Shown: positions 21,329 through 59,520, numbered from the stretch's first letter. The stretch is 64,000 nucleotides of DNA from Bdellovibrionales bacterium (GCA_031429075.1 JANOYW010000091.1:34663-98662); one strand, 5' to 3'. Numbers and translations: made by a program. The notes: generated by a model not told the origin, from the sequence alone.

Positions 21329-22321
21329 ATGGAGTTTCAACTTTCGTCGTTTGAAAAAACAATAAAAACCCAGATTCGTCCGATTTATTTATTTTTTGGC
21401 GAAGAAGAATTTTTTGTACAAGAGGCCCTCCGGGTCCTCGAAAATGTAGTCCTCGACGGTGGAACCCGAGACTTCAACTATGATTCTTACTACGCCAAGG
21501 AGACACCGACGTCGCAAATTTTTGATGTGGCCGAAACTCTGCCCATGATGTCCACGCGCCGATTGGTGATCGTGAAGGGCATCGAAAAGTGGACCGAGGC
21601 CGACTGGGAAGTTTTAACCAGCTACATCGGCAACCCCTCAGAGTCCTCCGTGGTTGTGCTAACAGCGCGCACTCTGGATAAGCGAAAAAAAGCCCACAAG
21701 CTTCTCCTCGAAAAAACCGAAGCTCTCGAGTTTAAAAAGCCCTACGACAACCAAGTTCCCAGTTGGATTCAGTATATGGCACAAAAATGCGGAGTGACCA
21801 TTGAACCCGACGCGATTCAGTTGTTGCATCAGTTTGTTGGCAGTCAGCTGAAGGATCTTGAAGGCGAAGTGATCAAGCTGTCGCAGTATATCGGCGAGCG
21901 AAATCAAATTCTTGTAAAAGACGTGATCGAAGTTGTTTCGAAAATCAAAGTGCAATCGGTTTTCGATCTGGCCCGTGCCATCGGTGAAGGCGACAAGGCG
22001 CGAGCACTGCTTTGCCTCTCTCAGTTGTTGTCGCATGGACAGAATGAAGTGGGAATCCTTGCTTTGGTTTCGCGCCACGTGCGAATTTTAAGGGCCGTGC
22101 GCAAAGCGCAGCGCGAAGGTTTGCGAGGTCCACAAATGGCAGCCAAGGTGGGAGTGTCGCCGTACTTTTTGCAAGAGTACGAAAGCCAGGCCCGTGGTTG
22201 GAGTGAAAAGAAAATCGAAAATGCGTTTAAAGCCTTGGTCGATACCGACAGAGCTCTGAAATCGTCGCCCATGTCGTCGCATATTTGGTTAGAAAATTTT
22301 GTTCTGCAGACCTGCCGCTAG
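21329..22321 (+). CDS. holA: DNA polymerase III subunit delta
   Basis: 330 aa with an N-terminal pattern IYLFFGEEEFFVQEAL typical of HolA, in conserved position after lptE. Confidence 0.85.
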   Translation: MEFQLSSFEKTIKTQIRPIYLFFGEEEFFVQEALRVLENVVLDGGTRDFNYDSYYAKETPTSQIFDVAETLPMMSTRRLVIVKGIEKWTEADWEVLTSYIGNPSESSVVVLTARTLDKRKKAHKLLLEKTEALEFKKPYDNQVPSWIQYMAQKCGVTIEPDAIQLLHQFVGSQLKDLEGEVIKLSQYIGERNQILVKDVIEVVSKIKVQSVFDLARAIGEGDKARALLCLSQLLSHGQNEVGILALVSRHVRILRAVRKAQREGLRGPQMAAKVGVSPYFLQEYESQARGWSEKKIENAFKALVDTDRALKSSPMSSHIWLENFVLQTCR

Positions 22322-22330: not shown

Positions 22331-23374
22331 TTATAGCGGTAAAAACCGGTCCAAAACATTTTTCGGAGCTTTAAGAATTCCACGCCCGGTCTTTTTATGA
22401 ATAATAATACTAGCGGGAACAACCGCTGTGAGAAACATATCACAGCCGCCTCCAAGACCCGTTTCACAGCCAGCGGCAATAAAGTCTGTGTTTACTGTGG
22501 CGTCTTGTTGTTTGATCAATTCAAGAATAATAGGGTCTTGCACGTAGTATTCCTTTTCGAGAAACGGCTGAACGACTCGACGGTACTCAACAACCAGTTG
22601 GTCACCAAAAATTTCTTTGTATTTGGCGAGAACATCTTTCACCAGCGACATTCGGTACGGATCGTTTTCGGAAGAGTCAGTTTTTTCGAAGACCACATTT
22701 TTATTCAGAAAAATAGCCGTGTGCATAAGCATCGAGGTGTCTTCGGCCACCAGGGATTTTTCGCGAATCACCAGCATGTCCCACAACTGCACGTCATCGT
22801 CGGCAATCACGGTGGAAACTATGTCCACTTCGTCGTTGGCGGTCCAGCGAGAAGGCACTGTGAGCCTGTAGGTTTGTTTTTTAAACAAAATAGCATTTAA
22901 ATTTTCGAATGTTGTATTCCAGCAGTTGGTCACAGTGCTTAAGCCATTTTTTCGAAGAGCCCAAAGATCCATGCCGCTATCGGTATCTAGAAGATATTCG
23001 TATTTTTGCGAATACAAGCCATCCGTGATGTGAAAAATGGGGGAGAAGCTCTGGTTGATCACAGCTTGAATACTCGGAGGTAGAAAATCACTCAAATCAT
23101 ACTTGCGCGAAGTTTCGTAAGCGACTTGAGAGGGCGAGCCATAAAAGGCGTTGAGGGAGTCGAATTGAGCCTGCGACACCTTTCCGAGCTGAACCGAAAG
23201 ATAGTAGCGATCCTGCTCGTAACTGAGTTCGGCAAACTTTTTGGAGTTTTTCTTTTCGACGTTGGCAGCGATATTCAAATCTGCGAACTCTGGAAAAACG
23301 GTTGAGAATGAAAGTTCTCCCGCAAAGACCGAGGTGGAAAAAAGAAGGGCGACTAAAAAATTGAATGTACGCAT
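22331..23374 (-). CDS. Secreted hypothetical protein
   Basis: N-terminal signal peptide MRTFNFLVALLFSTSVFAGE. I recognise no family. Confidence 0.55.
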   Translation of the reverse strand: MRTFNFLVALLFSTSVFAGELSFSTVFPEFADLNIAANVEKKNSKKFAELSYEQDRYYLSVQLGKVSQAQFDSLNAFYGSPSQVAYETSRKYDLSDFLPPSIQAVINQSFSPIFHITDGLYSQKYEYLLDTDSGMDLWALRKNGLSTVTNCWNTTFENLNAILFKKQTYRLTVPSRWTANDEVDIVSTVIADDDVQLWDMLVIREKSLVAEDTSMLMHTAIFLNKNVVFEKTDSSENDPYRMSLVKDVLAKYKEIFGDQLVVEYRRVVQPFLEKEYYVQDPIILELIKQQDATVNTDFIAAGCETGLGGGCDMFLTAVVPASIIIHKKTGRGILKAPKNVLDRFLPL

Positions 23375-25620: not shown

Positions 25621-27759
25621 TTAAGGACCCGCTTCGGTGGTTGCAGGGTTGGCCTTCCACACTCCGTCAGTTCCCACGGGAGATCCTGGGTAGTTAATAA
25701 AGCACGACGCGCCACTCACGTCATAGGTGGCAGCTGCTTCTGGAAAAACTGCTGTTCGAGCCGAGAAAATGGGGCAAGGTGTAACCACCGCCGCTAACGG
25801 GCCCCCGGCGGATGAGCAATGAAAATTCCATTCCTCGGGCGGGCGCCCGGTGAGGTGCACGAGGCGATTTCCGGGAGCAGCTTCTTGAGTGTATTCGTAA
25901 AATTCGATGGTTCGCACATTGTAAGCGGAGTCTACTTCGGCAACTTGCATATGGACTTCGCAGCCCGTGGGTACGCCGGTGTACTGTATATGATATCCAT
26001 CGGACACAGTTCCAGAACCAGATACGAATTCTGTGATCGGCGTGCGCAGAGTTTGTCCCGCAGCCGTCGCCATATCGGTTGCCGAGTACTCATTTGTCGC
26101 GCAGGAGATCTCAGCATACTCGCAAGGGACCCATCGACCGGTTTTAAAAATAATGTTCCAACCCGTGGGTGTGTTTGAAAGGTGCGTGGACGGTGTAAAT
26201 ACAGTGTAGTCTTCCGGGTCCAAAGGGCCAGCAGGGAGGTTCGACGAGAGTCCGGTGGTATCAAAACGCGGAAGATTTGGACAGCCATCTGCCACCGAGT
26301 CGCAAAAATAAGAGCCAAAGGGATAGTACAAACTATTAAACTGATGAAATCCAGTGGTCGCGTTGGCAACTGCGGCGGGTCGATCGGCGTTTGCGACGGA
26401 AGTATCATCGTTGTCGAAACTTGTGCCATTTTGTGCAAGCTCTGTGGAGAAAAACGATTGTCTCAGTCCTCCGGCGCGAAAAACATTCAAGAGATGTCGA
26501 GTGGCCGAAATGGTTGCTATATTGTAAGTATTAAGTCCAGCGGTGTCGTTGAGCATTCGCTGGCGCGTGAGATTTCGACACATAAAAACACTTCCTGGTC
26601 GCGCATTGGAAACGCGAAAGTTAAGGGTGCCCGGGTTTGGATCGTCGCAGGCGCGGAAGGGTCTTGTGCCACCATTGGCTGCATAGTCAATATTTGCAGG
26701 TGTCGATGGAGAGGACGCTGGTGGATCAGATGTTGGAACAAAAGTGTTGATGGCTTCGGAGGTGTCGCCGTCGTCAGCTAGGGGAGTTTCCGCAGCGTCC
26801 ACGTCGCTAATACGCAGCGGTCGTGCTGGGTCGGCCATGTTTAACGGGTATTGGAATTTTTCTGTGACGGAACAAGACGGTGGATTTGCGGTGTTACCAT
26901 CTCTGCCATCGTACTGAACGGTGATCGTCACTTCGTAACCCGCATTGAACCGAACAGACGGGGGAATTTGGCCAATTCGCATCGCAGCCGCTGGTGCGCC
27001 TGCTGGAAAGTTTACGCCGCTGTTCAAGCCTGGAGGAAATACATTGAGCATTCCCGTAGCGCTGCTATTTGGCATGGCGGCATGGTCGTAAGCACCTCCG
27101 CAGGTTCCGCCGATGACGGCGCCGGTGGCTGTATTAAAAAGTCGAATTTGTAGAAAAGCCTCTGGATCAAAAAGCCCGGTATTGGAAGTGGCAGAGTCCT
27201 CAACGCCCACGGGATTCGGAAAAATGGTGCTCAGTGGAGGCGAAGCTGAGGATGCTTGCAGACCGGGCGGGGTGCAAACTGCGGGAAAGTTATTGTGTAG
27301 TGTTTCAAGAGTCGAAATAGTACCCATGATGAACGTGTAAGGACGAAGAAGCGTAAGTGGATTTCCTGTTACGGGATCACCTGTGGTGAAAGGCGTGTTG
27401 ATGACGTCTGCGGCTCCGGTATTTGCCCAACGGTCTGCATAGTCCAGTCCCTCTTCTGAAGCTGACGGCACATCTGGAACCGTGACGTGACTTTCCGGCA
27501 CAGGTAAGGATCCTCCTCCGGGGCCTCCTGGAGCTGGAGCAAATCTGTAATGATCTCGCACCAATCCCTTGCCTTTAAATTCGCTCATCAAGCGTTGCGC
27601 TTCGGCTTTGCAACTTGCATTGAAGGTGAGGTTTTTTCGCGCGGAGGTTTTATCTCCCAATGTGACGGAAAGAATGGCACCCACAAGAATGGCAAGTAAA
27701 ACCATGCCCACAACGGCTTCGATGAGAGAGAATCCTTTTTGGGACCTGATAAAAAGCAT
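25621..27759 (-). CDS. Very large type IV pilin-like protein with prepilin-type N-terminal cleavage/methylation domain
   Basis: The N-terminus MLFIRSQKG|FSLIEAVVGMVLLAILVGAIL has Gly-1, Phe+1, Glu+5 and a hydrophobic helix. About 680 further residues follow, rich in P/G/T/N, with 14 Cys by my count. Confidence 0.8.
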   Translation of the reverse strand: MLFIRSQKGFSLIEAVVGMVLLAILVGAILSVTLGDKTSARKNLTFNASCKAEAQRLMSEFKGKGLVRDHYRFAPAPGGPGGGSLPVPESHVTVPDVPSASEEGLDYADRWANTGAADVINTPFTTGDPVTGNPLTLLRPYTFIMGTISTLETLHNNFPAVCTPPGLQASSASPPLSTIFPNPVGVEDSATSNTGLFDPEAFLQIRLFNTATGAVIGGTCGGAYDHAAMPNSSATGMLNVFPPGLNSGVNFPAGAPAAAMRIGQIPPSVRFNAGYEVTITVQYDGRDGNTANPPSCSVTEKFQYPLNMADPARPLRISDVDAAETPLADDGDTSEAINTFVPTSDPPASSPSTPANIDYAANGGTRPFRACDDPNPGTLNFRVSNARPGSVFMCRNLTRQRMLNDTAGLNTYNIATISATRHLLNVFRAGGLRQSFFSTELAQNGTSFDNDDTSVANADRPAAVANATTGFHQFNSLYYPFGSYFCDSVADGCPNLPRFDTTGLSSNLPAGPLDPEDYTVFTPSTHLSNTPTGWNIIFKTGRWVPCEYAEISCATNEYSATDMATAAGQTLRTPITEFVSGSGTVSDGYHIQYTGVPTGCEVHMQVAEVDSAYNVRTIEFYEYTQEAAPGNRLVHLTGRPPEEWNFHCSSAGGPLAAVVTPCPIFSARTAVFPEAAATYDVSGASCFINYPGSPVGTDGVWKANPATTEAGP

Positions 27760-27803
27760 ATGTAAGTATCGGGTTTGTTTACAAAAAACTCAAGATGGTC
27801 TAG

Positions 27804-29510
27804 CTAAAAAGCTGTATCAAAGCGAAACAACATGAACGGATTCTGGGAAATTTTTGGGGGGGGAACAGTAACAATAGAAAAATGAACGTGTTCCAGTGGA
27901 ATTGCCAGCCATTGTGTTGCATTTTGAGTCGGCTTCAGTTCCGAATCAAGCAATAGGCACTCGCTGAGTATATCCTTTTTTGTCGTTTGCGAGAAAATAA
28001 AGCTAGGTTTATTGTAAGGAAACAGCCAATAACTCTTATTTTTAAATTGAATAATGTTCGTATTATGTGAAGTTTTCTCATCCGCACGCATGTGCTGAGC
28101 TCTTAAAAACACGCCAGGGGAATATTCCAAATAATTGTTTTTTAGAAACATTTGCAGATCATGGGTAAATAAAATATTTTTATAAGTATAGAGGTAAATA
28201 TCTGGAGGCTTGGCTTGCAGAGCCGCTAAGATTTCACGGCTTCGAGTGACTTCCCCAGGACCAATAAACAAGTAGTAGGTATTATCTTGAGGGAGCAGTC
28301 CGATGATGTCGTATACTGAAACGGCTGGATTCTCTTTTTCATAAGTCTGTAATTGGGAAATAAATTCTTTTTGCAAGATATTGCCGTTGAACTGTTGATT
28401 GACCGTAAATTGTTTCCAGCAGAGCCAACAAGCGGCGGCTATCAACAGAGGGGAAAGCCACTTTAAAAGGGGTCGGGAGCTGCAGAAATGATCCAACGAG
28501 CAAAACTGGATTGCAATTAAAGGAGTTAAAAACGGCCCCAGAAAAAAAGGCAGTTTTTGATTGTAAAGAAGAACTAAGCTCAGCAAACAAGCACCGTACA
28601 AATGGAAGAAAGAATGAATGGGATCTTTTTGTTTAGAAAATATATGGACAAAAAATAAAACCAACCACCCAACGAGTAAAAGTGTGTGTACCATACTTAG
28701 TCGTAGAAAACGAAGTACGTACATAAAGTCCATGGATTTAAAAAATAGAGCACCTCCCAGGTCGGGATCGAAACTTTTTAGATAAAAGTCGCCAGCTGAT
28801 TGGATGGCGGAAAGTAAAGTATGTTCTGGTTGGGTAAACCCCAAATACGATAAAATAAATAATGCAAATGTTAACGGAATCAGTAGAGATATAAGGGTGG
28901 TTTTTCCAATAGATTGCTTGTCCGAACTTTGCTGGGACAAGAAATGGCAACCTATTAGAAATTGCATAGCAATAAAAATGAGAGCTTTTGGTGTGGTGAG
29001 CAAAAGAGCCGTGTTCAGTAGCATAAACCACAGAAGGTATTTTCTGCGGGGTTTGAAATCTTGAAAAACAAGAAACAAAAAACAAGTATGAAGAAGTAGA
29101 GCTAGAATATCCGCACGGATGCGGAAGCCTTGATTGAAGAACAGGCTCGAGGTGAGACAAACGAGAATAATGGGAAGGAACAGGTTTTTTTTTTGGTAAA
29201 TCTTCGTAAAAGTTGCGGCGACCAAAACGACGGAAGTGAGAGCGATCAAAGCAAAAACGATGCGCGAGACTTCGTAAATTAACAAGTTATTGTTGCTCCA
29301 AAAAGCCGTAATAAAAACTACCATGTGGAAAAACCATTTATAATAAACAGATTGAACAGCACCAACAGAGAGGGCTTTTTTACTTAAGGCGAGAAGCCAG
29401 ATTTCTGAATCAGAAAAATAACAGATTGTGGCGAGGTGGATGAATAAGCCGCTGAAGGCGAGGCACAGAAGTAAATAAAATGTTTGAATTTTCGGTAAGG
29501 CAATGCGCAT
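27804..29510 (-). CDS. Polytopic membrane protein with C-terminal soluble domain, GT-C-like (ArnT/PMT/oligosaccharyltransferase-like topology)
   Basis: A long series of hydrophobic segments spans roughly the first two thirds of the protein, followed by a C-terminal hydrophilic domain of about 200 aa. An acidic SDSE sits in the first loop. The gene is 44 bp upstream of, and co-oriented with, the pilin-like gene. The functional class is inferred from topology only. Confidence 0.5.
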   Translation of the reverse strand: MRIALPKIQTFYLLLCLAFSGLFIHLATICYFSDSEIWLLALSKKALSVGAVQSVYYKWFFHMVVFITAFWSNNNLLIYEVSRIVFALIALTSVVLVAATFTKIYQKKNLFLPIILVCLTSSLFFNQGFRIRADILALLLHTCFLFLVFQDFKPRRKYLLWFMLLNTALLLTTPKALIFIAMQFLIGCHFLSQQSSDKQSIGKTTLISLLIPLTFALFILSYLGFTQPEHTLLSAIQSAGDFYLKSFDPDLGGALFFKSMDFMYVLRFLRLSMVHTLLLVGWLVLFFVHIFSKQKDPIHSFFHLYGACLLSLVLLYNQKLPFFLGPFLTPLIAIQFCSLDHFCSSRPLLKWLSPLLIAAACWLCWKQFTVNQQFNGNILQKEFISQLQTYEKENPAVSVYDIIGLLPQDNTYYLFIGPGEVTRSREILAALQAKPPDIYLYTYKNILFTHDLQMFLKNNYLEYSPGVFLRAQHMRADEKTSHNTNIIQFKNKSYWLFPYNKPSFIFSQTTKKDILSECLLLDSELKPTQNATQWLAIPLEHVHFSIVTVPPPKISQNPFMLFRFDTAF

Positions 29511-29522: not shown

Positions 29523-30542
29523 ATGAGTCTAACGATCTGTACCGTTGTTTACAACGAAGAAAGAAATCTTTCCACAATCGAGCACAACATTCGTTTACTC
29601 TGGGAAACAGCTCCTTCAGTGCGATTTCTGCTTATTGATAATGCGTCAACGGATCAGTCACCTTTAGCTCTGCGGGTGCTCAGTGCAAAGTACGGGATTC
29701 GCCATATTCAAAGAGCGCAAAATCACTTGCCGCAAGCTCGTCAACAGGCTCTGCAATTAAGTTTAACGAAGTGGGTTGGGTTTATTGATGCCGATTGTCG
29801 AATTGATGAGGATTGGGTTTCTAATATGGGCCAACGCATTTTAGAGGTTGCAGGTCCAGTTGCGGCGTTTGGTGGTCCATGGCAAATAACGGGGGAGCGA
29901 TCTGCACTTTACCAGGGGTTGTTTAGCTCGTTTCTTGGACACTTTGGAAACTGCTACTTACGGAATCAATTTCAAAAAAGCTATGTTGACCATTTGCCAA
30001 CCGCTAATGTTTTTTACTCTCTGGAACACGTTTTGCTGGTGGGAGGATTTTCGTCGCCCCATCCCCATGTGGGAGAAGATTTAGACTTAAGCTACCGGCT
30101 TCGACGGCACGGCCTTAAGATTGAGTTTAATCCTAAGTTAAAAATTCAGCATCAGTTACCAACGTCTTTGCGAGCGTGGTGTGCCAAAATGTTTTTGTAT
30201 GGAACAGCTCGCGGTGAAGTGCTTTCGAGGTATAAAAAAATCAATTCTTATAAATCGATGGTTCCGCTTTTATTTTTACCGATTTTTTTATTAGCTGGGT
30301 ATTTTTCAACACATTTATTTTTAGGTGTTCTTGCTTTTTACTTACTGTCTTGCTTTTTTTGTTCGCTAAACTGGAGAAAGCTACGCCTCTGCTTGCAAAT
30401 TTTTCTATGGATGCTGGCAACTCATACTTTTTACGGGTTCGGCATTTATTATGGCTGTAAAATTTCGTTGCAAGCTTCGTTAAAAAAGAGGCTCGCCCAA
30501 TGGCGCCATAGAGGCCCAGCATGGGAAGAAAAATCAACTTAG
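29523..30542 (+). CDS. Glycosyltransferase family 2 with C-terminal TM helices
   Basis: ICTVVYNEERNL...LLIDNASTDQS...FIDADC (DxD-type motif). The C-terminal hydrophobic helices overlap the convergent GT2 ORF. Confidence 0.8.
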   Translation: MSLTICTVVYNEERNLSTIEHNIRLLWETAPSVRFLLIDNASTDQSPLALRVLSAKYGIRHIQRAQNHLPQARQQALQLSLTKWVGFIDADCRIDEDWVSNMGQRILEVAGPVAAFGGPWQITGERSALYQGLFSSFLGHFGNCYLRNQFQKSYVDHLPTANVFYSLEHVLLVGGFSSPHPHVGEDLDLSYRLRRHGLKIEFNPKLKIQHQLPTSLRAWCAKMFLYGTARGEVLSRYKKINSYKSMVPLLFLPIFLLAGYFSTHLFLGVLAFYLLSCFFCSLNWRKLRLCLQIFLWMLATHTFYGFGIYYGCKISLQASLKKRLAQWRHRGPAWEEKST

Positions 30543-31290
30543 TTTCTTTGTCTTGGTAAAGAAAGCCCAGCCCGCGCTTCAGTTGCTCTAGCTGGAAAAC
30601 GACTTTTTCAGGCTGCAGCTGGGCACCTTGGGTCCAAGACTTTCGAAAAACCCCATACAGCGAAGTCTTTGGCTGGTGAAACACGCTCCAGCGAGAGGAT
30701 AATTGAATCTGTAGCCCAACATCGGCCCAGGATGAATTTAATAAATATTCCTCACCAGCTCGCGAGTTTCTCTCGTCAAACGAAATTTTGTTCTGTTGAA
30801 GGAGCTGCCGTGGGTAGAAACAGCACCCTCCAAGGAGAACCGGTGAAGTTGTCTTTAGTTTTTGATAACTTTTGGCCCAGGCATTACACATATAGTTGTA
30901 AAACTGATCGCTCATCGTCGATGTTGTTTCGCTGAGATAAAATCCCCCGGCGGCATGGGTTGGCCTCTTTTGATGAAACTGTGTCATCTGTTGCAAATAA
31001 TTGCGGCGAGGCAAATAACAATCTTCATCCAGAAAAAAGACAATTTCCCCTTTCGCAACTTTGATGCCTTGGTTGCGCGCGCTTGCAATGCTGTGTTTAG
31101 GAGTTGCCACGATACGGTAGTTCAATTCGCCGGCGAATGATCTTATGGTTTGCTGGTGCCGTTGTTCTGGGTTTGTTGCGCAAATAAGCACTTCAAAGTT
31201 TTTGTAGCTTTGGCTTTGCAGAGAGGTAAAGAGTCTTTTTAAAAACGCAATATTGAATCTTGAGGCTACGATGATAGAAATCATGCTCAT
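30241..31290 (-). CDS. Glycosyltransferase family 2
   Basis: ISIIVASRFN...ARNQGIKVAKGEIVFFLDEDC. The last 100 or so codons are Lys-rich, low complexity and antisense to the neighbouring gene's TM helices. Confidence 0.72.
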   Translation of the reverse strand: MSMISIIVASRFNIAFLKRLFTSLQSQSYKNFEVLICATNPEQRHQQTIRSFAGELNYRIVATPKHSIASARNQGIKVAKGEIVFFLDEDCYLPRRNYLQQMTQFHQKRPTHAAGGFYLSETTSTMSDQFYNYMCNAWAKSYQKLKTTSPVLLGGCCFYPRQLLQQNKISFDERNSRAGEEYLLNSSWADVGLQIQLSSRWSVFHQPKTSLYGVFRKSWTQGAQLQPEKVVFQLEQLKRGLGFLYQDKETKLIFLPMLGLYGAIGRASFLTKLATKFYSHNKCRTRKKYELPASIEKFASRGVAFSSLANKKSKTVSKKQEHLKINVLKNTQLIKKSVKIKAEPSIYKN

Positions 31291-32363
31291 TTTAGCCCAA
31301 CTGTCTTAAAAGCCAACCAGCCCAATTTTTTGCAAATAAAAATACATCGGTAGGAAAAACGAACTGCTATCAGGGTTCGCGGCGCCAGCGGCAATGGTTC
31401 GAACATGGATTGGAAGAAGCCATAGGATGCGAGAGTGATTGAATGCAGTCGCCAAAAGGTTTTCGAGCAAAGGGAGTATAGCCACCAATACAGTTGGACC
31501 ATTTGTTTGCCAATAAACCGATCAAACAGGGTTTTTAAAAACAGCAAAAATCGATTTCCATCGGTGAATTGCGATTGATAGCCCAAAATAAAAAACAGCG
31601 CGTAAAGCTCTAATCCAGCACGCAACCACATCGGGGCTTGGTCGGTGCTTGACGACATTTGCTTGAGTTGATGACCATACATTTTTGTTTGTACGGCGGC
31701 GCCGATTCCTTGCAAAAAGGCCTTGCGCAAAAGGCTATGCAAATTGAGTTGGGTGTTGTGATAAACCGCCAGATCTAAAAAATACCCATGGGCACCGTAT
31801 TTAAGGGCCAAGATGGTGTTGAGTGGTGTTTCACTGCCGCCGTAGATGATCTCTTCGGTAAAACGAAAACCGTTTGCAAAAATAAAAGCTTTGTAAGAGG
31901 CATTACCGCCGAGAAGTGCTGTTGATCGCGAGGTTTCGATGAAATTGGCATGGATCCAATTGGCGTTGTTTGCATGATAAATTTGGTCACAGAGTGAAGA
32001 ATTTTGTGTGAGCAAGTAAGGCCCGCCCACCGCCGCCAAGTGGGAAAAGCTGTGGTGGTAAGCGAAGTGTTTTTGCAAAAATGCGGGATCCGTGACTTCG
32101 CAGTCGTCGTCTAAAAACAGAATCACCGAACCCCGTGCGTGGAGAGCTCCATGATTTCGCGCATGGTTAACCCCTGGGTGTGGCGCGCATAAAAGTTGGA
32201 CTAGCGAAGAGTCTTTCAGCGGAGACGATTTTTTTTGCAGTTCGGAATTGTAAACAACGAGCACTTCGAAGGAAGCGCGAACCATGTTTTGTAGTTGAAG
32301 GGACTCAACAAGCCTGATAAGGCTGTCGGGTCGATTCGTTGTAGGAATCACCACTGAAAGCAT
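31287..32363 (-). CDS. Glycosyltransferase family 2
   Basis: LSVVIPTTNRPDSL...ARNHGALHARGSVILFLDDDC. 4-nt overlap with the downstream GT2. Confidence 0.75.
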   Translation of the reverse strand: MLSVVIPTTNRPDSLIRLVESLQLQNMVRASFEVLVVYNSELQKKSSPLKDSSLVQLLCAPHPGVNHARNHGALHARGSVILFLDDDCEVTDPAFLQKHFAYHHSFSHLAAVGGPYLLTQNSSLCDQIYHANNANWIHANFIETSRSTALLGGNASYKAFIFANGFRFTEEIIYGGSETPLNTILALKYGAHGYFLDLAVYHNTQLNLHSLLRKAFLQGIGAAVQTKMYGHQLKQMSSSTDQAPMWLRAGLELYALFFILGYQSQFTDGNRFLLFLKTLFDRFIGKQMVQLYWWLYSLCSKTFWRLHSITLASYGFFQSMFEPLPLAPRTLIAVRFSYRCIFICKKLGWLAFKTVGLK

Positions 32364-32391: not shown

Positions 32392-33948
32392 GTGTCAACG
32401 CGGTTCGAGCAAAAGCCATTCCATGGATTACATTCTCGCGGGCGGAGTTATGTTTACGCTGTGCCGGCCGCTGATGACGTCTGCAATGATTTATGGAAGC
32501 TCAATGGCACGTGGCGAAAAGGTTTCTGGAATTACGATAAATTTTTGCGTTCTTTGGAAAAAGCTCAAAGGTCTGGTTACTCCAGCTTTGTGATGTCTGA
32601 GCTCGTGTTTGCACTCCCGCAATGGGAGTCGATGTTTCAGGAGATAAAAATGGCAGGACTGACTCCGGTTCTGCAAGTGAGCAGTGAAGAAAGCTTAACT
32701 CACTTTGCCGCGTTCGTTGCGCAAAATCAAATTGGGGTGGAGCGATGGATTGTTGACCAGTGGCCAAACTGGCAGGTCTTACGGTCTTTAAAAAAAACCA
32801 ACACAGTCAGTTTAAAAATGCTCGGTACTCGTTCGAACAAGTGTCTTTATAATCTTGATCAAATTCCCAAAGATTTTTATAGCGACATGGAGTTTTATTT
32901 TCCCTACCATCTCGATAAAAAGCAAAAGCTTCGTCCTCGAGAGGTGGTTGCTTGGCAGAAACACGTTCAGAAAAACCATCCACAGCTCAATGTTAAGGGG
33001 GTTAGCGGCGTAGATGTGTTTGAACCACGAATCGGAGAGGAAATGGAGTTGGAACCTTGCCATCCTCCGCTATTTTGCTCGGATCCTTCCTTGCTGCCGC
33101 AGGTATCGGTGGTGATTCCCACTTATAACAATGGATTGTATTTGCTAAATACTTTACGCCATCTTGAGCGGCAGACTCTTTCGAAAAACTGCTATGAAGT
33201 GGTTGTTGTGGACGATGGAAGTTGCGACAAAATAAGCGAAAATTTAATGAATTTAATCAAAGACTTTCAAATGCCCATCCGTCTTCTCTACTATCCACGC
33301 ATGCAGCTGCGAAAGATGGGAGATGGTCAATTTCGTGCAGGTCTTGCTAGAAACTATGGTGTGAAGTTTGCGAGAGGAGAACTTTTAGTTTTTCTCGACT
33401 CGGATATTTTAACGCCTGCCGATTTTTTAGAAAAAACTTTGGCTTTGCACGAGCAGTATGAGGTTGTTCAGTGGCGTCGGGATTACTTTCATAAAAAAGT
33501 CCCCAGCATTCGGATGCGCTACGAAGATGTTGTGGAGACTCAGCACTGCTACGTGCCTGAAGGCGGCTACTGGCATCGTTTTTACGAGCAGGCTGGCGAA
33601 AAAGGTTGGATGCAAGTGGCGGATCATTGGAAGTACGCTTGCACCTATGGATTTTCGCTTAAAAAATCGTTGTTTAAAGACGTCGGTTGGTTTCGCAAAA
33701 CCTTTTGTTTTTACGGATTGGAAGACACTGATCTCGGCTGGCGCTTGGCGCAAAGAGGGTGTTCGTTTCATCTCGAGCCGACGCCGGTGTATCATCTGTT
33801 TCACGAGAATTCCCGTTCGGAGTATTTCAACTCGGCCTACAAGCGGCAGAAGTTGTTGAAAGCAACGTCAGAGATCTTCTTTTACAACAATCTCTCCCCC
33901 GAGATCTATCGGGTGTTTCAGTATTTGTTGAACAGCTGGATTTTTTGA
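32392..33948 (+). CDS. Two-domain protein: unknown N-terminal domain (about 235 aa) plus C-terminal family 2 glycosyltransferase
   Basis: The C-terminal half has VSVVIPTYNNGLYL...VVVVDDGSCD...ARNYGVKFARGELLVFLDSD. I do not recognise the N-terminal part. GTG start. Confidence 0.72.
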   Translation: MSTRFEQKPFHGLHSRGRSYVYAVPAADDVCNDLWKLNGTWRKGFWNYDKFLRSLEKAQRSGYSSFVMSELVFALPQWESMFQEIKMAGLTPVLQVSSEESLTHFAAFVAQNQIGVERWIVDQWPNWQVLRSLKKTNTVSLKMLGTRSNKCLYNLDQIPKDFYSDMEFYFPYHLDKKQKLRPREVVAWQKHVQKNHPQLNVKGVSGVDVFEPRIGEEMELEPCHPPLFCSDPSLLPQVSVVIPTYNNGLYLLNTLRHLERQTLSKNCYEVVVVDDGSCDKISENLMNLIKDFQMPIRLLYYPRMQLRKMGDGQFRAGLARNYGVKFARGELLVFLDSDILTPADFLEKTLALHEQYEVVQWRRDYFHKKVPSIRMRYEDVVETQHCYVPEGGYWHRFYEQAGEKGWMQVADHWKYACTYGFSLKKSLFKDVGWFRKTFCFYGLEDTDLGWRLAQRGCSFHLEPTPVYHLFHENSRSEYFNSAYKRQKLLKATSEIFFYNNLSPEIYRVFQYLLNSWIF

Positions 33949-34175: not shown

Positions 34176-34841
34176 TCAAATACACTTCTCGCCAATTGGT
34201 TTTTGGACAGCTAAAAATGAGTTACTTCTAAATTCGATATTTATGTTCTCTTTGATCCAAAAATCCATCCCACATGAACTGGAATCCACATGGAATCGAG
34301 GAAGATCATAAAGGTAGGGATTAACCGTATACTGACTACAATCTGTATTTGCCGTATTGAGATTCTCAATCGTATGAACGCTTCCATCATCACAGGTCAC
34401 AGCACCGATGTTATTCTTTACAGTAAAGCCAAAAGATTTTCCTGCGTACTTAACTAAATAATAATAATTTTCATAATACTCCTTATAATCTGGAGAATAC
34501 CAAGTCAGTGATGTGTACTCAAAAAAACTTTGATTGTTTTTCTCTGCAACAAACGAGATTTCATCCTGAATTCCCTGAAAGAGTCCTGATGGGATCTGTA
34601 CAGGATTTTTAAAATTGAGCTTGATATATCCATTTTTGCTTACGGCAGACATCAGGTCGGCTGACTGCCGAACAGCCAACAAGTTCATGATTGAAAACGA
34701 TTTGTCGGTAAAGCGATTTATTGATTCCGTTAAGCATTGAACACTTTTGCGATAGGCATCACATCTTGGTAGTGCTGCTTCTGAGCCATTAACCGAGCCA
34801 AAACTTATTAACATGCCAATTAAAAATAATGATTTCTTCAT
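34176..34841 (-). CDS. Secreted hypothetical protein (AT-rich gene, several Cys)
   Basis: Signal peptide MKKSLFLIGMLISFGSVNGSEA. No recognisable family. Looks markedly AT-richer than the surrounding genes by eye. Confidence 0.55.
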   Translation of the reverse strand: MKKSLFLIGMLISFGSVNGSEAALPRCDAYRKSVQCLTESINRFTDKSFSIMNLLAVRQSADLMSAVSKNGYIKLNFKNPVQIPSGLFQGIQDEISFVAEKNNQSFFEYTSLTWYSPDYKEYYENYYYLVKYAGKSFGFTVKNNIGAVTCDDGSVHTIENLNTANTDCSQYTVNPYLYDLPRFHVDSSSCGMDFWIKENINIEFRSNSFLAVQKPIGEKCI

Positions 34842-35052
34842 CGAAGTCCCCTGTAAAAATTCTGAATTGTTAAATAGTGTTTAATGGACCAGCTTAAGTG
34901 TCAACAAAAGTAATGGACTTGGAGCACCCTGGTCACTACAAGATCAATAAAACCTACCCAATACCAAATAATCCCTCACTCCAACACCTCGCCCGTCTAT
35001 TAAAGAAGTGCCATTCTTTCCGTGAATTCCTCCGATGCAAGCATCTATGTTG

Positions 35053-35065
35053 ATGCCGCTGCGGC
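35053..35065. repeat. REP-like palindromic motif, copy 2 (TGCCGCTGCGGCA)
   Basis: Same 13-nt palindrome family, in the 513-bp divergent intergenic region. Confidence 0.5.
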
Positions 35066-35354
35066 AGCACGTGTGGCGTCAATCCGGAAACTTTTTTTTC
35101 AAAAAAGTTTGACCAGTGTTTCTGCGTGTTTGGATTGTGTCTAAGAAGCTATTAGGTTGTTGCCTGTGGAGCATTATTGGCGTTGCGAAAACTCGCGCTA
35201 TAGATCAGTTTTTGTAGGTTTAATGACATTTTAAAGATTTATTTTTTTAAATTGTCCGGCTCATATATTTCTCAAAAATGAAATATAAAAACCCGTGTTA
35301 TTGTTTTTTTGAAAGCTAAAACTCAAATGAATGAGCAGCTGAAAAGGAGAAATC

Positions 35355-36614: not shown

Positions 36615-36648
36615 ATTGCCGCTGCGGCAGTGATGAACTTAGTTTGTT
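36615..36648. repeat. REP-like element, copy 4 (34-nt extended form), overlapping the mazG stop codon
   Basis: ATTGCCGCTGCGGCAGTGATGAACTTAGTTTGTT. Its last 10 nt encode the final three codons and the stop of mazG on the minus strand. Confidence 0.6.
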
Positions 36649-37460
36649 TTCTTGCGCGAAGATTTTGCCTTCACCTTTTTCAACTGCTTTACTGCCTTCA
36701 ACTGTTTCTTCGCCTTGTCCCACAGCACTTCCTTTTTCTTCACGGAAAGGGCGCAGTACTCTTTCCAGCTTAAGCTCGAAATCTTAAAAGCTGTTTCGAT
36801 GCGCTTGACCACTTTTGTATTTGCCAGGCGCAGGGATTTTTCGGGATCGAGATCCAGCAGGCGTGCGACTTGCGCCAAGGTGAAAAGTGTATCGCCGAGC
36901 TCTTCCATCTGATGGGCTTTGTCTTTGCCGCGCAAGGTGGCCTTGAGTTCGCTCACTTCGGACATAAATTGTTTAAACACATCGCTCACTTTGTACCAAT
37001 CAAAGTCGATGGTGCGGGTTTTTTTGCCAATTTTCACTGCGCTCAATAGTGAAGGGAAATTGCGTGGCATTTTAAAAATTTCGGTGGAGTTGATTTTTGC
37101 AGATTTGGTTCTTTCCCAGGTCTGCTTTACGCTGTCGGCAGATATTTGCTTTTTGTCCAACGCAAATACATGCGGATGTCTTTCAATCATTTTTTCGCTC
37201 AGCGAATGGATCACATCATCCAAAGAAAAATGCCCCGCCTCTTGCGCCATTTGGCTTTGAAACACCACCTGGAAAAGCAAATCTCCGAGCTCTTCTTTTA
37301 CATCCTCCGGCGTTTTGTGGAGAATAGCGTCTTCCAGTTCTAACGCCTCTTCGACGGCATAGGGAGTGAGGCTTTCGGGAGTTTGTTTTTGATCCCAGGG
37401 GCAGCCGGCGCGCAGAGAAGCCATGATTTTTTTAAGATCGTCGAGAGTTTGTCGTTTCAT
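36639..37460 (-). CDS. mazG: Nucleoside triphosphate pyrophosphohydrolase MazG
   Basis: Two MazG EExxE-type motifs (YAVEEALELEDAI, EELGDLLFQV; second repeat EELGDTLFTL). Start at the ATG at 37460 (MKRQTLDDL). Lys-rich C-terminal tail. Confidence 0.85.
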   Translation of the reverse strand: MKRQTLDDLKKIMASLRAGCPWDQKQTPESLTPYAVEEALELEDAILHKTPEDVKEELGDLLFQVVFQSQMAQEAGHFSLDDVIHSLSEKMIERHPHVFALDKKQISADSVKQTWERTKSAKINSTEIFKMPRNFPSLLSAVKIGKKTRTIDFDWYKVSDVFKQFMSEVSELKATLRGKDKAHQMEELGDTLFTLAQVARLLDLDPEKSLRLANTKVVKRIETAFKISSLSWKEYCALSVKKKEVLWDKAKKQLKAVKQLKKVKAKSSRKKTN

Positions 37461-55532: not shown

Positions 55533-57209
55533 GTGTCTAAAAATAATCTTGCAGAAGTTAAAAAACCAAGTGGTAAGTTGGCTCACGTTCAGGCCAATCG
55601 CCGAACCAATGAGTCACTCACAGCCGCCGCCGAACGCTTGGGCGTGACCCAGCAACAATTGGGTGAAGAACTTGGTGAGTTTTATCAAATGCCATTCATC
55701 GATCTTTCTGATTTTGAAATCGATCAAGCAGCCATCGCTGCTTTAAGCGTAGAGCAATGTAGAAAATATTCCGTCATGCCTTTATCTCGGGCGGGAAATA
55801 CTCTAGTGGTTGCCTTCTCCGATCCCACCAATTTGTTCATGCGAGATGATATTTCGTACATTACGAAATGCAAAATTGAGCCGGTTGTGGCCACAGAAAG
55901 TGGCATCCAAAAAGCGATTGCGAAATACTATGCAAAAGCAGAGGTGCAAGAAGATTACCTAAATGACTTTGGAGATGAAGATATCCAAGAGGAGACCAAA
56001 AGCACGCACATCGGATCAAATCCTGCTGATGAAGCGCCTGTCGTCAAGTTCGTAAATATGATGCTGACTGAAGCTGTGAAAGAAAACGCTTCTGATATCC
56101 ATGTTGAACCCTACGAAAAAAGCATTCGCATTCGTTTTCGCAAAGATGGCCAGTTATTCGAAAAATACAGACCACCAAACAATATTGCCTCGGCGATTTC
56201 GTCACGTCTCAAAGTCATGGCCAAAATGGATTTGGCTGAAAGAAGAAAACCACAGGATGGCCGTATTAAGCTGAAGTTTAAAGACAAAGGCGATGTGGAT
56301 TTTCGAGTGAACGTATTGCCTGTGGTCGATGGTGAAAAAGTGGTTATGCGGATTATGGATAAATCCAAAATCACCAATATTAAGCTGACAGAGCTTGGCT
56401 TTACAAATGATCAGTACTTAGTACTGCAAGCTGTTCTTCAAAAACCGCAAGGTCTTGTATTGGTTACTGGGCCGACAGGTAGCGGTAAAACAACAACGCT
56501 CTATGCCTCTCTGCAAGAAATCCATGATACGACAATCAATATCAGCACGGCTGAGGACCCGGTTGAATTTAAATTGACCGGAATCAATCAAACGCAGGTG
56601 CAGCCAGACATCGGATATACTTTTGCCGAAGCTCTAAGGGCGTTTTTACGTCAAGATCCCGATGTGATTTTGGTGGGAGAGATCCGCGATACAGAAACTG
56701 CAGAGATTTCTTTTAAAGCGGCCTCAACTGGTCACTTGGTGCTGAGCACTCTTCATACAAACGATGCACCGGGGACAGTCTCTCGTCTGATTGAAATGGG
56801 TATTCCAGGATATATGATTACCTCCACGGTGGAAATTATATTGGCGCAACGCTTGGTTGGAAAAATATGTCCCGCTTGCAAAACGGAAGATCGCGTAGAT
56901 ACGGGCTTACTGCTAAAGCTCAATTTGCAAGCGAAGGATCTCAAGGATATTAAGTTTTACAAAGGGCAAGGTTGTGAAACCTGCTCCGGTACGGGAATTA
57001 AAGGGCGAGTCGCAATTTACGAATTTTTGCCAATTTCTGATGAGATCAAAGAGGCCGTCATGGCAAATGCAACACCTCTTGAACTCAAGCGGGCGGCCAT
57101 CCGCGGCGGAATGAAGTCGTTGAGAATGTCGGCCGTGGAAAAAGCGAAACTAGGTTTGATTTCATTGATGGAAGTTCTCAACAGCACCATGCAGGATCCT
57201 AAATTATGA
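55533..57209 (+). CDS. pilB: Type IV pilus assembly ATPase PilB (GspE family)
   Basis: N-terminal GSPII domain, Walker A GPTGSGKTT, tetracysteine CPACK...CETCSGTG. GTG start with AAGGAG upstream. Confidence 0.92.
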   Translation: MSKNNLAEVKKPSGKLAHVQANRRTNESLTAAAERLGVTQQQLGEELGEFYQMPFIDLSDFEIDQAAIAALSVEQCRKYSVMPLSRAGNTLVVAFSDPTNLFMRDDISYITKCKIEPVVATESGIQKAIAKYYAKAEVQEDYLNDFGDEDIQEETKSTHIGSNPADEAPVVKFVNMMLTEAVKENASDIHVEPYEKSIRIRFRKDGQLFEKYRPPNNIASAISSRLKVMAKMDLAERRKPQDGRIKLKFKDKGDVDFRVNVLPVVDGEKVVMRIMDKSKITNIKLTELGFTNDQYLVLQAVLQKPQGLVLVTGPTGSGKTTTLYASLQEIHDTTINISTAEDPVEFKLTGINQTQVQPDIGYTFAEALRAFLRQDPDVILVGEIRDTETAEISFKAASTGHLVLSTLHTNDAPGTVSRLIEMGIPGYMITSTVEIILAQRLVGKICPACKTEDRVDTGLLLKLNLQAKDLKDIKFYKGQGCETCSGTGIKGRVAIYEFLPISDEIKEAVMANATPLELKRAAIRGGMKSLRMSAVEKAKLGLISLMEVLNSTMQDPKL

Positions 57210-58270
57210 TTACGTTGATTCAATTACTCAAGTTGACTTCTGAGCAGGGTGCATCTGATTTGCACATTGTGGCGGGTAGCCCCCCGTGTTTGCGCGTTGA
57301 AGGGCGAGTGATTCGAGTTAAAAGTAGTAGCTTGAATGCCGAGGACACGCGTCGCCTCTGTTATTCTGTGCTCAATGATGCGCAAAAGAGTCGGTTTGAG
57401 CAAGAAAAGGAATTGGATTTCAGTTTCGAAGTGAAAGGCTTGTGTCGCTTTCGTGGTAATTTGTTTTTTCAGAAAAACTCACTGTCAGGAGTTTTTCGTC
57501 GCGTGCCCAATCATATTCCCAATTATTTAGACTTAGGCCTGCCGCCTGCTATTCCTAAGTTGACCGGACTTGCTAACGGATTGGTACTGGTCACCGGGCC
57601 AACGGGCTCTGGAAAAACCACAACGATTGCCTCGCTGATCGACAAAATTAACCAAGAAAAAGAGGGTCACATCGTAACTCTCGAAGATCCCATCGAATTT
57701 ATGCATCCGCATAAAAACTGTATTGTGAATCAGCGAGAAGTGGGTGTGGACTCCTTATCTTATTCTGAAGGTTTAAGACGTTTGATGCGTCAGGATCCTG
57801 ATTATTGCTTGATTGGCGAGATTCGCGATGAAGATACGGTGGAGACGGCGTTAAAACTCGCCGAAACGGGCCATTTAGTTTTTGCAACATTGCACACCAA
57901 TTCGGCAGTGCAAACGATCAATCGTGTTGTGAGTATTTTTCCTTCCGATCAACAGGAGCGAATTCGCGTTGTTTTGAGTTTTACTTTGCAAGCCGTCGTC
58001 AGCCAAAGGCTGATTGTGAGCACGACGGGTAAGCGCATTCTTGCCTGTGAATTCTTGTTGCTCAATGCTGGGATTCGTAATTTGATAAGAGAAGGAAAAC
58101 TGCATCAAGTTCAGAATATGATGGAAGTTGGTCAAGAACGATCAGGAATGATAACTTTAAATCAAACTCTTTGTGATTTAATTCGCGCCAGTCGCATCAC
58201 AGAGAAAGAAGCCTATGCCTGTACCAATAACCCAGATGATCTATTCAAGTTACTACAACGAGGAGCCTAA
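57206..58270 (+). CDS. pilT: Type IV pilus retraction ATPase PilT
   Basis: Walker A GPTGSGKTTT, and the PilT-type AIRNLIREGK motif appears here as GIRNLIREGK. Length 354 aa. Confidence 0.92.
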   Translation: MITLIQLLKLTSEQGASDLHIVAGSPPCLRVEGRVIRVKSSSLNAEDTRRLCYSVLNDAQKSRFEQEKELDFSFEVKGLCRFRGNLFFQKNSLSGVFRRVPNHIPNYLDLGLPPAIPKLTGLANGLVLVTGPTGSGKTTTIASLIDKINQEKEGHIVTLEDPIEFMHPHKNCIVNQREVGVDSLSYSEGLRRLMRQDPDYCLIGEIRDEDTVETALKLAETGHLVFATLHTNSAVQTINRVVSIFPSDQQERIRVVLSFTLQAVVSQRLIVSTTGKRILACEFLLLNAGIRNLIREGKLHQVQNMMEVGQERSGMITLNQTLCDLIRASRITEKEAYACTNNPDDLFKLLQRGA

Positions 58271-59520
58271 TGGCTGTATTTAACTATCAGGCGAGAGCCC
58301 TCAACGGATCTGCAGTTCAAGGGCAGGTCGAGGCAGCCAGCGAAAACGAAGCGCGCGTTAAAATCCGCGCGAACCGATTGATTCCGCTCAAGCTAGAGAT
58401 GACAAGTGGCGGACCGTCTGCAGCGAGCTCTTCGGCACCTTCGAGTAAAAAAACTGGGGGGATCAACTTTTCAATGGGGCCTGGGAAAGTAAAACCCAAG
58501 GACCTGCAAAACTTCACACGCCAGCTCGCTGTGCTTGTCGGAGCCGGCGTGGCCATCATTCCCTCACTAGAGGCGCTGGCAACAGGACAAAAAAGCCCGG
58601 TATTTAGAAAAGCCATCACCGAGGTCTGCCAAGATATTTCCACAGGAAAAAAAATGGGACAAGCTTTTGCTCGGCAAGGGCACGTGTTTGATAAATTCTA
58701 TATTAATATGATTGTGGCCGGAGAAGAGGGCGGGGTTTTAGAAATCGTTCTCAAAAGACTTGCGGATTACATTGAAAAAGCGGTTAAAATTCAAGGAAAA
58801 ATCAAAGGTGCGTTGGTTTACCCGATTGCAGTTTTAGTTATTTCGTTGCTCATCATTACCGGGTTATTAATTTTTGTGGTTCCCAAATTTGCCGAACTTT
58901 TTATGGGCTCGGGGATGAAGTTGCCATTTTTAACCCAGTTGATGATGGATATGAGTGCGTTTATGCAGAGAACATGGTGGATGTTCGGCGTAGGTATTTT
59001 TGTGCTGGTACAGGGAACTAAAGCTTACTATGCCACCTCCTCGGGACGACAGGTGATCGATGCACTTTTGATTCGTGCACCTCTCTTTGGAAATTTGATC
59101 ATTAAAGGTGGCCTTGCAAAGTTCACGCGAACACTTTCAACTCTGCTCAACGCGGGGGTCTCCATCATGGACGCCATGGATATCGGCGCTCAGGTGTCGG
59201 GAAATTATGTGATTGAAGTGGCCATTGTGAAAGCTAAGGACGCGATTGCTTCGGGAAAGTCCATTGCCACACCGTTTTCGCAGGATAAAATGTTTCCTCC
59301 TTTGGTGGTGCAAATGATGGCGGTGGGCGAAGCAACCGGTGCTTTGGATCAAATGTTGTCGAAGATCGCCGATTTTTTTGAGGACGAAGTAGAAACCATC
59401 GTATCAAGTATTACAACCCTCATTGAGCCCATTATGATCGTGGTTCTTGGGGGGATCGTGGCGTGTCTTGTTTTGGCGATGTATATGCCTATTTTCCAAA
59501 TGGCGGGCGGCGTTCAGTAG
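58270..59520 (+). CDS. pilC: Type IV pilus platform protein PilC (GspF family)
   Basis: Duplicated GspF/T2SSF domains with three TM segments, in conserved position after pilB and pilT. Confidence 0.9.
   Translation: MAVFNYQARALNGSAVQGQVEAASENEARVKIRANRLIPLKLEMTSGGPSAASSSAPSSKKTGGINFSMGPGKVKPKDLQNFTRQLAVLVGAGVAIIPSLEALATGQKSPVFRKAITEVCQDISTGKKMGQAFARQGHVFDKFYINMIVAGEEGGVLEIVLKRLADYIEKAVKIQGKIKGALVYPIAVLVISLLIITGLLIFVVPKFAELFMGSGMKLPFLTQLMMDMSAFMQRTWWMFGVGIFVLVQGTKAYYATSSGRQVIDALLIRAPLFGNLIIKGGLAKFTRTLSTLLNAGVSIMDAMDIGAQVSGNYVIEVAIVKAKDAIASGKSIATPFSQDKMFPPLVVQMMAVGEATGALDQMLSKIADFFEDEVETIVSSITTLIEPIMIVVLGGIVACLVLAMYMPIFQMAGGVQ

Follow-up and report, generated by a model that had tools for sequence, protein, structure and literature searches.

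A giant pilin-like protein and its partner GT-C glycosyltransferase in uncultured Bdellovibrio-like bacteria

An important question raised by a 64,000-nucleotide stretch of a Bdellovibrionales bacterium (GCA_031429075.1, JANOYW010000091.1:34663-98662; this whole stretch is hereafter the window) is what a protein does that begins like a type IV pilin, continues for several hundred residues more and is encoded far from any pilus gene. The gene in question specifies a 712-amino-acid (aa) prepilin-type protein, which an earlier note, made from the sequence alone, had described as an orphan modular pilin. Type IV pili are required for Bdellovibrio prey entry, and the pilus component that touches the prey is poorly understood; the protein and its relatives are a concrete candidate, being very large, fast-evolving and pilin-type, with a glycosyltransferase of their own. 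Our interpretation starts from what is established, namely the prepilin signal, the family, its Cys pattern, the GT-C identity of the partner enzyme, the conserved pairing of the two genes and their co-divergence. With moderate confidence, it takes the protein for a giant modular minor pilin that would be glycosylated by the dedicated GT-C enzyme and displayed on a type IVa pilus.

The gene and the parts of its product, as deduced from the translated open reading frame (ORF), are listed below; A1 is an alignment of 9 sequences and A2 one of 33 family members with a mean column identity of 22%.

25621..27759, minus strand: prepilin-type gene of 712 aa, ATG start, stop codon at 25621-25623
27733..27759, minus strand: leader peptide, residues 1-9, MLFIRSQKG, with R5 and K8 basic, ending in Gly-1
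27571..27732, minus strand: mature N-terminus, residues 10-63, with Phe+1, Glu+5 (E14), hydrophobic alpha1N and amphipathic alpha1C with C50
27433..27570, minus strand: variable Pro/Gly-rich linker, residues 64-109, poorly conserved and with numerous inserted columns in both A1 and A2
26800..27432, minus strand: conserved core 1, residues 110-320, delimited by invariant columns
26650..26799, minus strand: hypervariable acidic Pro/Ser/Thr-rich linker, residues 321-370 (…DDGDTSEAINTFVPTSDPPASSPSTPANIDY…), indel-rich
26260..26649, minus strand: conserved core 2, residues 371-500, delimited by conservation in A1 and A2
25840..26139, minus strand: conserved core 3, residues 541-640, W543-V-P-C546-E…C553 and G-C600-E-V-H-M-Q-V-A-E-V-D-S-A-Y-N-V
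25624..25839, minus strand: Cys-containing C-terminal tail, residues 641-712, with C648, C662 and C686, YPGSP and GVW.xNP

By its sequence the 712-aa product is a genuine prepilin-type (class III signal) protein. The ORF is present where the earlier note placed it, with an ATG start and on the minus strand, which the note had left unstated, and the N-terminus reads MLFIRSQKG|FSLIEAVVGMVLLAILVGAIL as quoted there: a basic leader, Gly-1, Phe+1, Glu+5 and a hydrophobic stretch. The note had proposed running a signal predictor; the curated prepilin models accept this N-terminus, with 27.8 bits for Pfam N_methyl PF07963 (gathering cut-off 21.2) and 17.1 bits for NCBIfam TIGR02532 (cut-off 16.3). 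Hydropathy shows residues 7-38 as the sole hydrophobic segment. In a six-frame translation of the 64 kb, the prepilin motif appeared only at this gene, so that it is indeed the only pilin-like gene in the window. Prepilin-peptidase cleavage is predicted after Gly9, a residue which, like F10, E14 and C50, is invariant in A1 and which is at least 90% conserved in A2.

What follows the pilin-like N-terminus is conserved in blocks. Core 1 is marked by R110-W111, IMG..ET..NN at 144-157, C162, C220, GYEVT at 274-278, C296 and EKFQYP at 300-305; it is the part that even the most distant superfamily members share, their profile matches mainly covering profile positions ~4-330. The linker at 321-370 has the lowest identity (0.39) and the highest gap fraction (0.34) in A1. 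Core 2 is marked by C371, RPGSVFMCRNL at 387-397, GLRQSF.S.EL and LYYP.G.YFC…C.NLPRF with C486-x6-C493, and is followed by a variable stretch at residues 501-540. Core 3 carries WVPCE…C and GCEVHMQVAEVDSAYNV and is the best-conserved stretch apart from alpha1, with identity at residues 601-620 of 0.89 in A1 and 0.65 in A2; its W543, C546 and C600 are invariant across the 33 diverse members, and its motifs recur in the distant members P0074 and P0088. Some distant relatives append extra modules after the C-terminus of the shared region.

Known families and structures match the N-terminus only; the earlier note, too, had recognized no domain family beyond it. Pfam (E<=10) and NCBIfam (E<=0.01) returned no family besides N_methyl for the protein. 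A search of the PDB with the A1 profile gave no match even at lax thresholds, and the A2 profile matched only the alpha1 helix of Geopilin, PilA, MshA and GspG. The AlphaFold2 (AF2) model from 9 sequences had a mean predicted local distance difference test score (pLDDT) of 34 and a predicted template modelling score (pTM) of 0.32, with helices at 12-33 and 37-63 at low confidence. Self-BLAST returned only the identity hit, which rules out duplicated modules or internal repeats within the protein. The word "modular" in the sense of repeated or recognizable modules is thus not supported.

The protein contains 14 Cys (positions 50, 162, 220, 296, 371, 394, 486, 493, 546, 553, 600, 648, 662 and 686), including two C-x6-C pairs (C486-x6-C493 and C546-x6-C553), in agreement with the earlier count of 14 with several in close pairs. 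All 14 are invariant in the nine homologues of A1, which backs the note's suggestion of disulfide-stabilized extracellular modules, and Cys counts across the 78-representative family described below are mostly 14 or 16. Composition is dominated by A (11.1%), T (9.7%), P (9.0%), G (8.8%), S (7.7%) and N (6.2%), so that the richness in Pro, Gly, Thr and Asn seen in the note holds. The same composition explains the content of guanine plus cytosine (GC), which is 0.528 in this gene vs 0.392 in the GT-C gene just upstream, a contrast noticed earlier by eye. At codon position 2 the value is 0.533, with all neighbours at 0.33-0.40, while at position 3 (GC3) it is 0.485 within a window range of 0.40-0.56. 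With the excess at codon position 2 and an unremarkable GC3, the contrast is that of an Ala/Gly/Pro/Thr-rich protein against a Phe/Leu/Ile/Lys-rich membrane protein. Horizontal transfer is thereby rejected as its source, and any suggestion of foreign origin from the GC content is unsupported; conserved synteny agrees.

The protein is not an orphan. A search of 5.8 billion protein clusters returned, besides the window's own protein, eight full-length relatives at 45-76% identity, all with N_methyl, so that A1 spans 45-100% identity to the 712-aa protein; a repeat search with A2 gave these 9 proteins again. Those that occur in genome bins carry the label of Bdellovibrionales or Pseudobdellovibrionaceae metagenome-assembled genomes, so that the lineage is Bdellovibrio-like. 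In a profile search of all 1.84 billion representatives, 78 proteins were found at E<=1e-3, of which 22 at E<=1e-30. Down to E~1e-4, almost all full-length members have a basic leader followed by G-[FVAIY]-[ST]-x-x-E, a test on which the note had made its reading depend; the few members without it mostly look like fragments starting in mid-protein or have non-standard termini. Eight columns are invariant in A2, six of them Cys: C50, C296, F302, Y304, C394, W543, C546 and C600. Pfam over the 33 members found N_methyl in 29 (E <= 0.01) and no other family, T2SSK/GspK included, so that the alignment to a characterized large minor-pilin family that the note had named as fatal to novelty did not appear. 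The members' automated label is 'pseudopilin PulG', and no label is informative. Judged from these comparisons, the 712-aa protein defines a small and hitherto undescribed family of giant pilin-like proteins, rich in predicted disulfides, that occurs in uncultured Bdellovibrio-like bacteria.

The gene directly upstream, which the earlier note had passed over as the "AT-rich gene just upstream", proved to be a conserved and probably co-transcribed partner. It and the glycosyltransferase family 2 (GT2) genes beyond it are as follows.

27804..29510, minus strand: GT-C-fold glycosyltransferase of 568 aa, predicted from AF2 with Foldseek, invariant columns and a PMT_2 match in an orthologue
27760..27803, minus strand: intergenic gap of 44 bp from the GT-C gene to the pilin-like gene
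29523..30542, plus strand: GT2a, a 339-aa family-2 glycosyltransferase, divergent from the GT-C gene (Pfam GT2 and Glyco_trans_2_3)
30241-31290, minus strand; 31287-32363, minus strand; 32392-33948, plus strand: three soluble GT2 genes (Pfam)

The 568-aa protein alone had no Pfam (E<=10) or NCBIfam match, and neither it nor its profile A3 had a PDB sequence match at E<=1 to 10. Its 39 homologues reach down to 29% identity, and AF2 on a 36-homologue alignment gave a confident model with pLDDT 86.5 and pTM 0.85, in which about 11 transmembrane helices are followed, from about residue 378, by a C-terminal alpha/beta domain in the periplasm. The top 15 Foldseek matches of this model in the PDB were all GT-C enzymes whose substrates are polyprenyl-phosphate-linked sugars (probability 0.97-1.00, TM-score 0.28-0.49), namely AftA, ArnT, the oligosaccharyltransferase STT3, ALG9, ALG12, DPY19, EmbB and Pmt1/2; below them the values fell sharply to unrelated transporters and receptors (probability <=0.30, TM-score about 0.1). 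The motif Y31-x-x-D34-S35-E36-I-W-L is invariant and directly follows the first transmembrane helix, in the first periplasmic loop. From the positive-inside rule and general GT-C knowledge, we take this position of the D-S-E loop to be the seat of the catalytic acidic loop. Moreover, the orthologue in locus L016 (L016:6934-8832) passes Pfam PMT_2 (PF13231) with 31.8 bits against a cut-off of 26.1, and the L013 orthologue scores 17.7 bits, below threshold. With about 11 transmembrane helices, an acidic first-loop motif and a modelled GT-C fold, the partner is, on its predicted structure, a GT-C-fold glycosyltransferase of the polyprenyl-phosphate-sugar type. A fold and a probable role can thus be assigned to a 'hypothetical' membrane family that is invisible to sequence libraries. 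The two genes are probably on one transcript, since the 44-bp gap holds no promoter-like or terminator-like site.

In local hidden Markov model searches of all fetched loci, the GT-C gene adjoined a member of the pilin-like family in every non-redundant locus with enough flanking DNA, namely the window, L001, L003, L004, L006, L007, L008, L009, L013, L014, L016 and L017. The gap between the two is about 40-55 bp in L001, L007, L008, L009 and L013 and longer in L016 and L017. Most of these loci have one ancient block in common, in the order MazG, the GT2 genes, GT-C, the pilin-like gene, MurJ (convergent), S20, holA and LptE, and for them synteny would be explanation enough. GT2a keeps its place wherever the synteny holds, and the three soluble GT2 genes are also conserved, varying in number and fusion state. 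In L010 the pair is kept without the GT2 genes or the rest of the block, flipped in orientation and beside rpoD; hhalign gave a probability of 99.2% there (E=1.5e-19), with TESEIW aligned to DSEIW. A scan of metagenome contigs with A3 found two short loci only, and the same scan with alignment A4 found no relative.

The genes of the block do not evolve at one rate, as seen from the percent identities to the window proteins:

L003: pilin-like 68, GT-C 70, GT2a 63; holA 98, LptE 95
L006: pilin-like 53, GT-C 61, GT2a 61; holA 92, LptE 90
L001: pilin-like 45, GT-C 45, GT2a 49; holA 81, LptE 77
L008: pilin-like 29, GT-C 33, GT2a 38; holA 65, LptE 57

The pilin-like gene, GT-C and GT2a diverge fast and in step, unlike holA, LptE and MurJ; in L003, the counterpart of the window's holA (21329-22321) is 98% identical, that of the pilin-like protein 3 kb away 68%. 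Compared in this way, the sequences suggest a diversifying pressure on the pilin-like/GT-C/GT2a cassette. It is the persistence of the pair after rearrangement in L010, together with this co-divergence, that argues for a functional link between the two genes.

A donor for the GT-C enzyme might come from the same cassette. GT2a has a hydrophobic C-terminal region at residues 245-284 by hydropathy, and GT2 enzymes that load polyprenyl-phosphate with sugar likewise have a C-terminal hydrophobic region. GT2a is therefore a candidate maker of the polyprenyl-phosphate-sugar donor on the strength of its GT2 domains and that region; it had no relative among PDB sequences at E<=1e-3. The window also encodes the motor and platform of a type IVa pilus, the candidate machine for assembly of the 712-aa protein:

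55533..59520, plus strand: pilB, pilT and pilC, type IVa pilus motor and platform (Pfam T2SSE+MshEN, T2SSE and T2SSF)
59536-62663: pilS and pilR (Pfam 6TM_PilS and Sigma54_activat)

From these parts the following course may be proposed. The 712-aa protein would enter the inner membrane, where, as its motif suggests, prepilin peptidase would cleave after Gly9 and methylate Phe10 and alpha1 would serve as the anchor. Its periplasmic part of ~650 residues would fold with up to seven disulfides, given the 14 invariant Cys. In the periplasm it would be glycosylated by the GT-C enzyme, for which the conserved pairing, the covariation in rate and the TfpW precedent described below all speak. The polyprenyl-phosphate sugar donor would be made by the adjacent membrane-anchored GT2, and one plausible target is the linker at 321-370, a candidate O-glycosylation region; the campylobacter-type N-glycosylation sequon D/E-x-N-x-S/T is absent from the protein. 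The type IVa machine (pilBTC) might then install the protein as a low-abundance pilin at or near the tip rather than in the filament body, because a head of ~70 kDa cannot pack there. At the pilus tip it could act as a surface or prey-contact determinant. A bolder version, which we consider unlikely as a whole, would see the giant glycosylated pilin and a private three-component glycosylation module (a membrane GT2 and a PMT/ArnT-like GT-C) as a rapidly co-diversifying cassette at the tip of the predatory type IVa pilus of uncultured Bdellovibrio-like bacteria, setting the choice of prey or surface. If true, this would establish a novel class of recognition protein carried on pili, its fold unlike that of any solved structure.

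Several observations weigh against a glycosylated pilin on a type IVa pilus. The evidence for the pairing comes mostly from one ancient syntenic block, with a rearranged pairing in L010 only, and the distant members in L012, L018 and L019 have no GT-C gene nearby. The pilin-like gene lies in an envelope and housekeeping block (MurJ, S20, holA, LptE) with no pilus gene or minor pilin adjoining, and the window ORFs that were scanned include no Peptidase_A24 or prepilin peptidase gene. The AF2 model of the head is unusable (pLDDT 34), so that a pilin-type head is unsupported, and every family member comes from an uncultured organism. The GT-C enzyme could act instead on lipid A or another glycan. 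In addition, Glu5 is dispensable only in the apex subunit (PMC10628169); the invariant Glu+5 thus disfavours the very apex and would place another pilin above the 712-aa protein.

Two rival readings link the two genes in another way or not at all. The protein may be an envelope protein with a borrowed pilin signal that stays in the inner membrane or periplasm and aids a modification of lipid A or lipopolysaccharide by the GT-C and GT2 enzymes, as scaffold, acceptor-binding or specificity subunit; this would be an unusual use of the pilin signal. Sugar additions to lipid A would suit a GT-C enzyme with a lipid-linked donor, and the GT-C model is as similar to ArnT as to protein-modifying GT-Cs. 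The location of the locus inside a conserved block with MurJ, LptE, holA and S20 throughout the clade, with no other pilin or pilus gene nearby, also favours this role, as does the mannose that replaces phosphate in the lipid A of B. bacteriovorus, according to the mention of Schwudke 2003 in PMC2233673. Yet both the complete pilin alpha1 and its invariant Glu+5 are associated with assembly into filaments (PMC10628169), the protein changes much more quickly than the envelope proteins encoded around it, as is typical of exposed proteins, and distant relatives occur in minor-pilin-like gene pairs or carry a pretoxin-HINT (PT-HINT) or Cys-rich module of extracellular type. We regard the envelope role as rather doubtful for these reasons. 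Alternatively, the protein could be a large type IVa minor pilin that shares only synteny with the GT-C and GT2 genes, these serving an unrelated pathway such as lipid A mannosylation, O-antigen or exopolysaccharide. That the paired loci are mostly one syntenic block that also keeps unrelated genes speaks for such a coincidence, as do the L012, L018 and L019 members without a GT-C neighbour. It is nevertheless distinctly unlikely: in the rearranged L010 the pair persists outside the block, in most close loci only about 40-55 bp separate the two genes, with nothing like a terminator between them in the window, and the fast divergence is specific to the pilin-like gene, GT-C and GT2a, the other neighbours being slower.

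Two further explanations remain. If the protein polymerized through alpha1 and Glu+5 as the major subunit of a thick fibre with glycosylated heads of ~70 kDa, the invariant Glu+5 and canonical alpha1 would be expected, and a single-copy gene with a dedicated modification enzyme would fit, since in well-known examples dedicated pilin glycosylation targets major pilins. A head of ~650 residues far exceeds that of any major pilin, however, and modular pilins with much smaller bulky heads have already been judged unfit for the filament body (PMC10628169); moreover, no dedicated assembly genes adjoin and the family is rare, which makes such a fibre very improbable. At the other extreme, an ordinary signal anchor could mimic the prepilin signal by chance, for which only the shortness of the motif can be adduced. 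The motif scores above the curated cut-offs, and G-1, F+1 and E+5 are invariant or nearly so while the rest has diverged to about 22% identity; on these grounds a chance resemblance is rejected as next to impossible.

The distant members of the family deserve a separate description. Those in L012 and L019 have another prepilin-type gene of ~280-320 aa overlapping them or directly beside them, and in L018 a second prepilin motif lies just downstream, arrangements that resemble minor-pilin operons. The L012 member, P0081 (L012:6713-8947), whose start overlaps the stop codon of a 318-aa prepilin-type gene, ends in a C-terminal Hint/pretoxin-HINT domain (PF07591, E=2.4e-11), which is typical of polymorphic toxin cargo; from its domains it may be a pilin-borne toxin-delivery variant. 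P0065, P0088 (L011:320-2992) and P0098 are 817-916 aa long and have long Cys-rich C-terminal extensions, with 41-46 Cys in total; CTLPWGG-type units are repeated in P0065, and P0098 has a weak thrombospondin-type-1 match. As far as domain content can tell, the HINT and Cys-rich extensions point to exposed or secreted proteins.

Other features of the window were also recorded. The pilB/T/C/S/R genes (55533-62663) are about 27.8 kb from the pilin-like gene, close to the 28 kb of the earlier note. The pilBTC genes are flanked by two pairs of histidine kinase and sigma-54 activator: a minus-strand pair at 51477-54529, made up of a CHASE2 kinase and an NtrC-type regulator, and PilS/PilR (59536-62663) downstream of pilC; no major pilin gene lies between pilR and the window end. 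The convergent GT2 ORFs at 29523-30542 (plus) and 30241-31290 (minus) overlap at their 3' ends by about 300 bp, and equivalent pairs in L007, L008, L016 and L017 by about 47-115 bp; either the overlap is a conserved feature or the window ORFs overrun their true ends. Between GT2d (end 33948) and MazG (36639-37517) the window has ~2.7 kb inserted, while in related loci no more than about 150 bp separate MazG from the last GT2 gene. The insert (34176-36365), with a 221-aa ORF without family match and an HNH/DUF222 endonuclease gene at 35355-36365, may be a small mobile insertion. A 347-aa ORF at 22331-23374 (minus), with two hydrophobic segments and no family match, occupies the slot between holA and S20/MurJ, a variable position in an otherwise fixed block that elsewhere holds a 151-aa unknown gene (L008), PilZ (L017) or PilZ plus a 657-aa unknown (L016). 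MurJ itself was considered as a dedicated glycan flippase and rejected, because it passes the murJ equivalog (359.8 vs 235.55 bits) and shows a slow, housekeeping-like evolution.

Several known systems come close, among them the large minor pilins and pseudopilins. GspK/T2SSK, the PilX/PilW group, ComZ and CofB/TcpB have a class III signal, are large, of low abundance and tip-located, and initiate assembly; GspK-type apex subunits are without Glu+5. The 712-aa protein likewise combines a class III signal with a size much above that of major pilins. It differs in that Glu+5 is invariant in its family, no PF03934 match was found in the window protein (E<=10) or the 33 members, and no large minor pilin was among the PDB matches of the profile at E<=10. 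Moreover, large minor pilins sit in operons with three or four other minor pilins, and GspK has GspH/I/J-type pseudopilin genes as neighbours, whereas the 712-aa gene has neither.

The bulky modular pilins are another such group. PilB and PilC of Streptococcus sanguinis are held to be too bulky for the filament body and are placed at the pilus tip, as adhesins (PMC10628169). They share with the 712-aa protein the canonical pilin N-terminus followed by an unusually large head. No sequence similarity was found beyond alpha1. Modules are recognizable in PilB and PilC (vWA, lectin), whereas the 33 family members show no known domain, and Pfam, NCBIfam and the PDB revealed no independently occurring grafted domain in the 712-aa protein. 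Further differences are its length of 712 aa, the 14 conserved Cys, the location away from pilus genes and the pairing with GT-C. By analogy of size and head bulk, it may thus work like a modular pilin without being a member of that group.

A parallel to the gene pair is TfpW of P. aeruginosa Pa5196 and PA7, where tfpW, encoding a GT-C enzyme, lies directly beside pilA and its product O-glycosylates that pilin; the acidic DDX motif of TfpW is essential, and a lipid-linked sugar is used (bioRxiv 10.1101/2020.04.19.049825). Compared by description rather than by sequence, the TfpW/PilA system (group IV) also has a membrane GT-C gene adjoining a pilin gene, and here this adjacency is conserved across loci. 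However, the tfpW gene follows that of a small major pilin and its product includes a TPR domain in the periplasm, whereas the 568-aa enzyme is encoded upstream of a giant pilin-like protein and has a C-terminal domain predicted to be alpha/beta, with no TPR family match; DprE-type arabinose genes make the donor of TfpW, in place of which GT2 enzymes are found here.

The membrane GT2 beside a GT-C gene recalls the three-component periplasmic systems composed of a GtrB/ArnC-type GT2, a flippase and a GT-C of the ArnT/GtrC/PMT kind. Their flippase has no identified counterpart of the small GtrA type here, and a GtrB/ArnC-like role of GT2a rests only on its GT2 domains and C-terminal hydrophobic region; on the GT-C side, the fold matches include ArnT and Pmt1/2, and the L016 orthologue passes PMT_2. 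Overall, the biology stays within known kinds (pilins, pilin glycosylation, GT-C enzymes) and is not categorically new. The comparison extends the idea of the 'modular pilin' to a protein of 700 residues with a head that resembles no known domain and would add, after Pseudomonas TfpW, a second independent case in which a pilin-like protein has a genetically dedicated GT-C enzyme.

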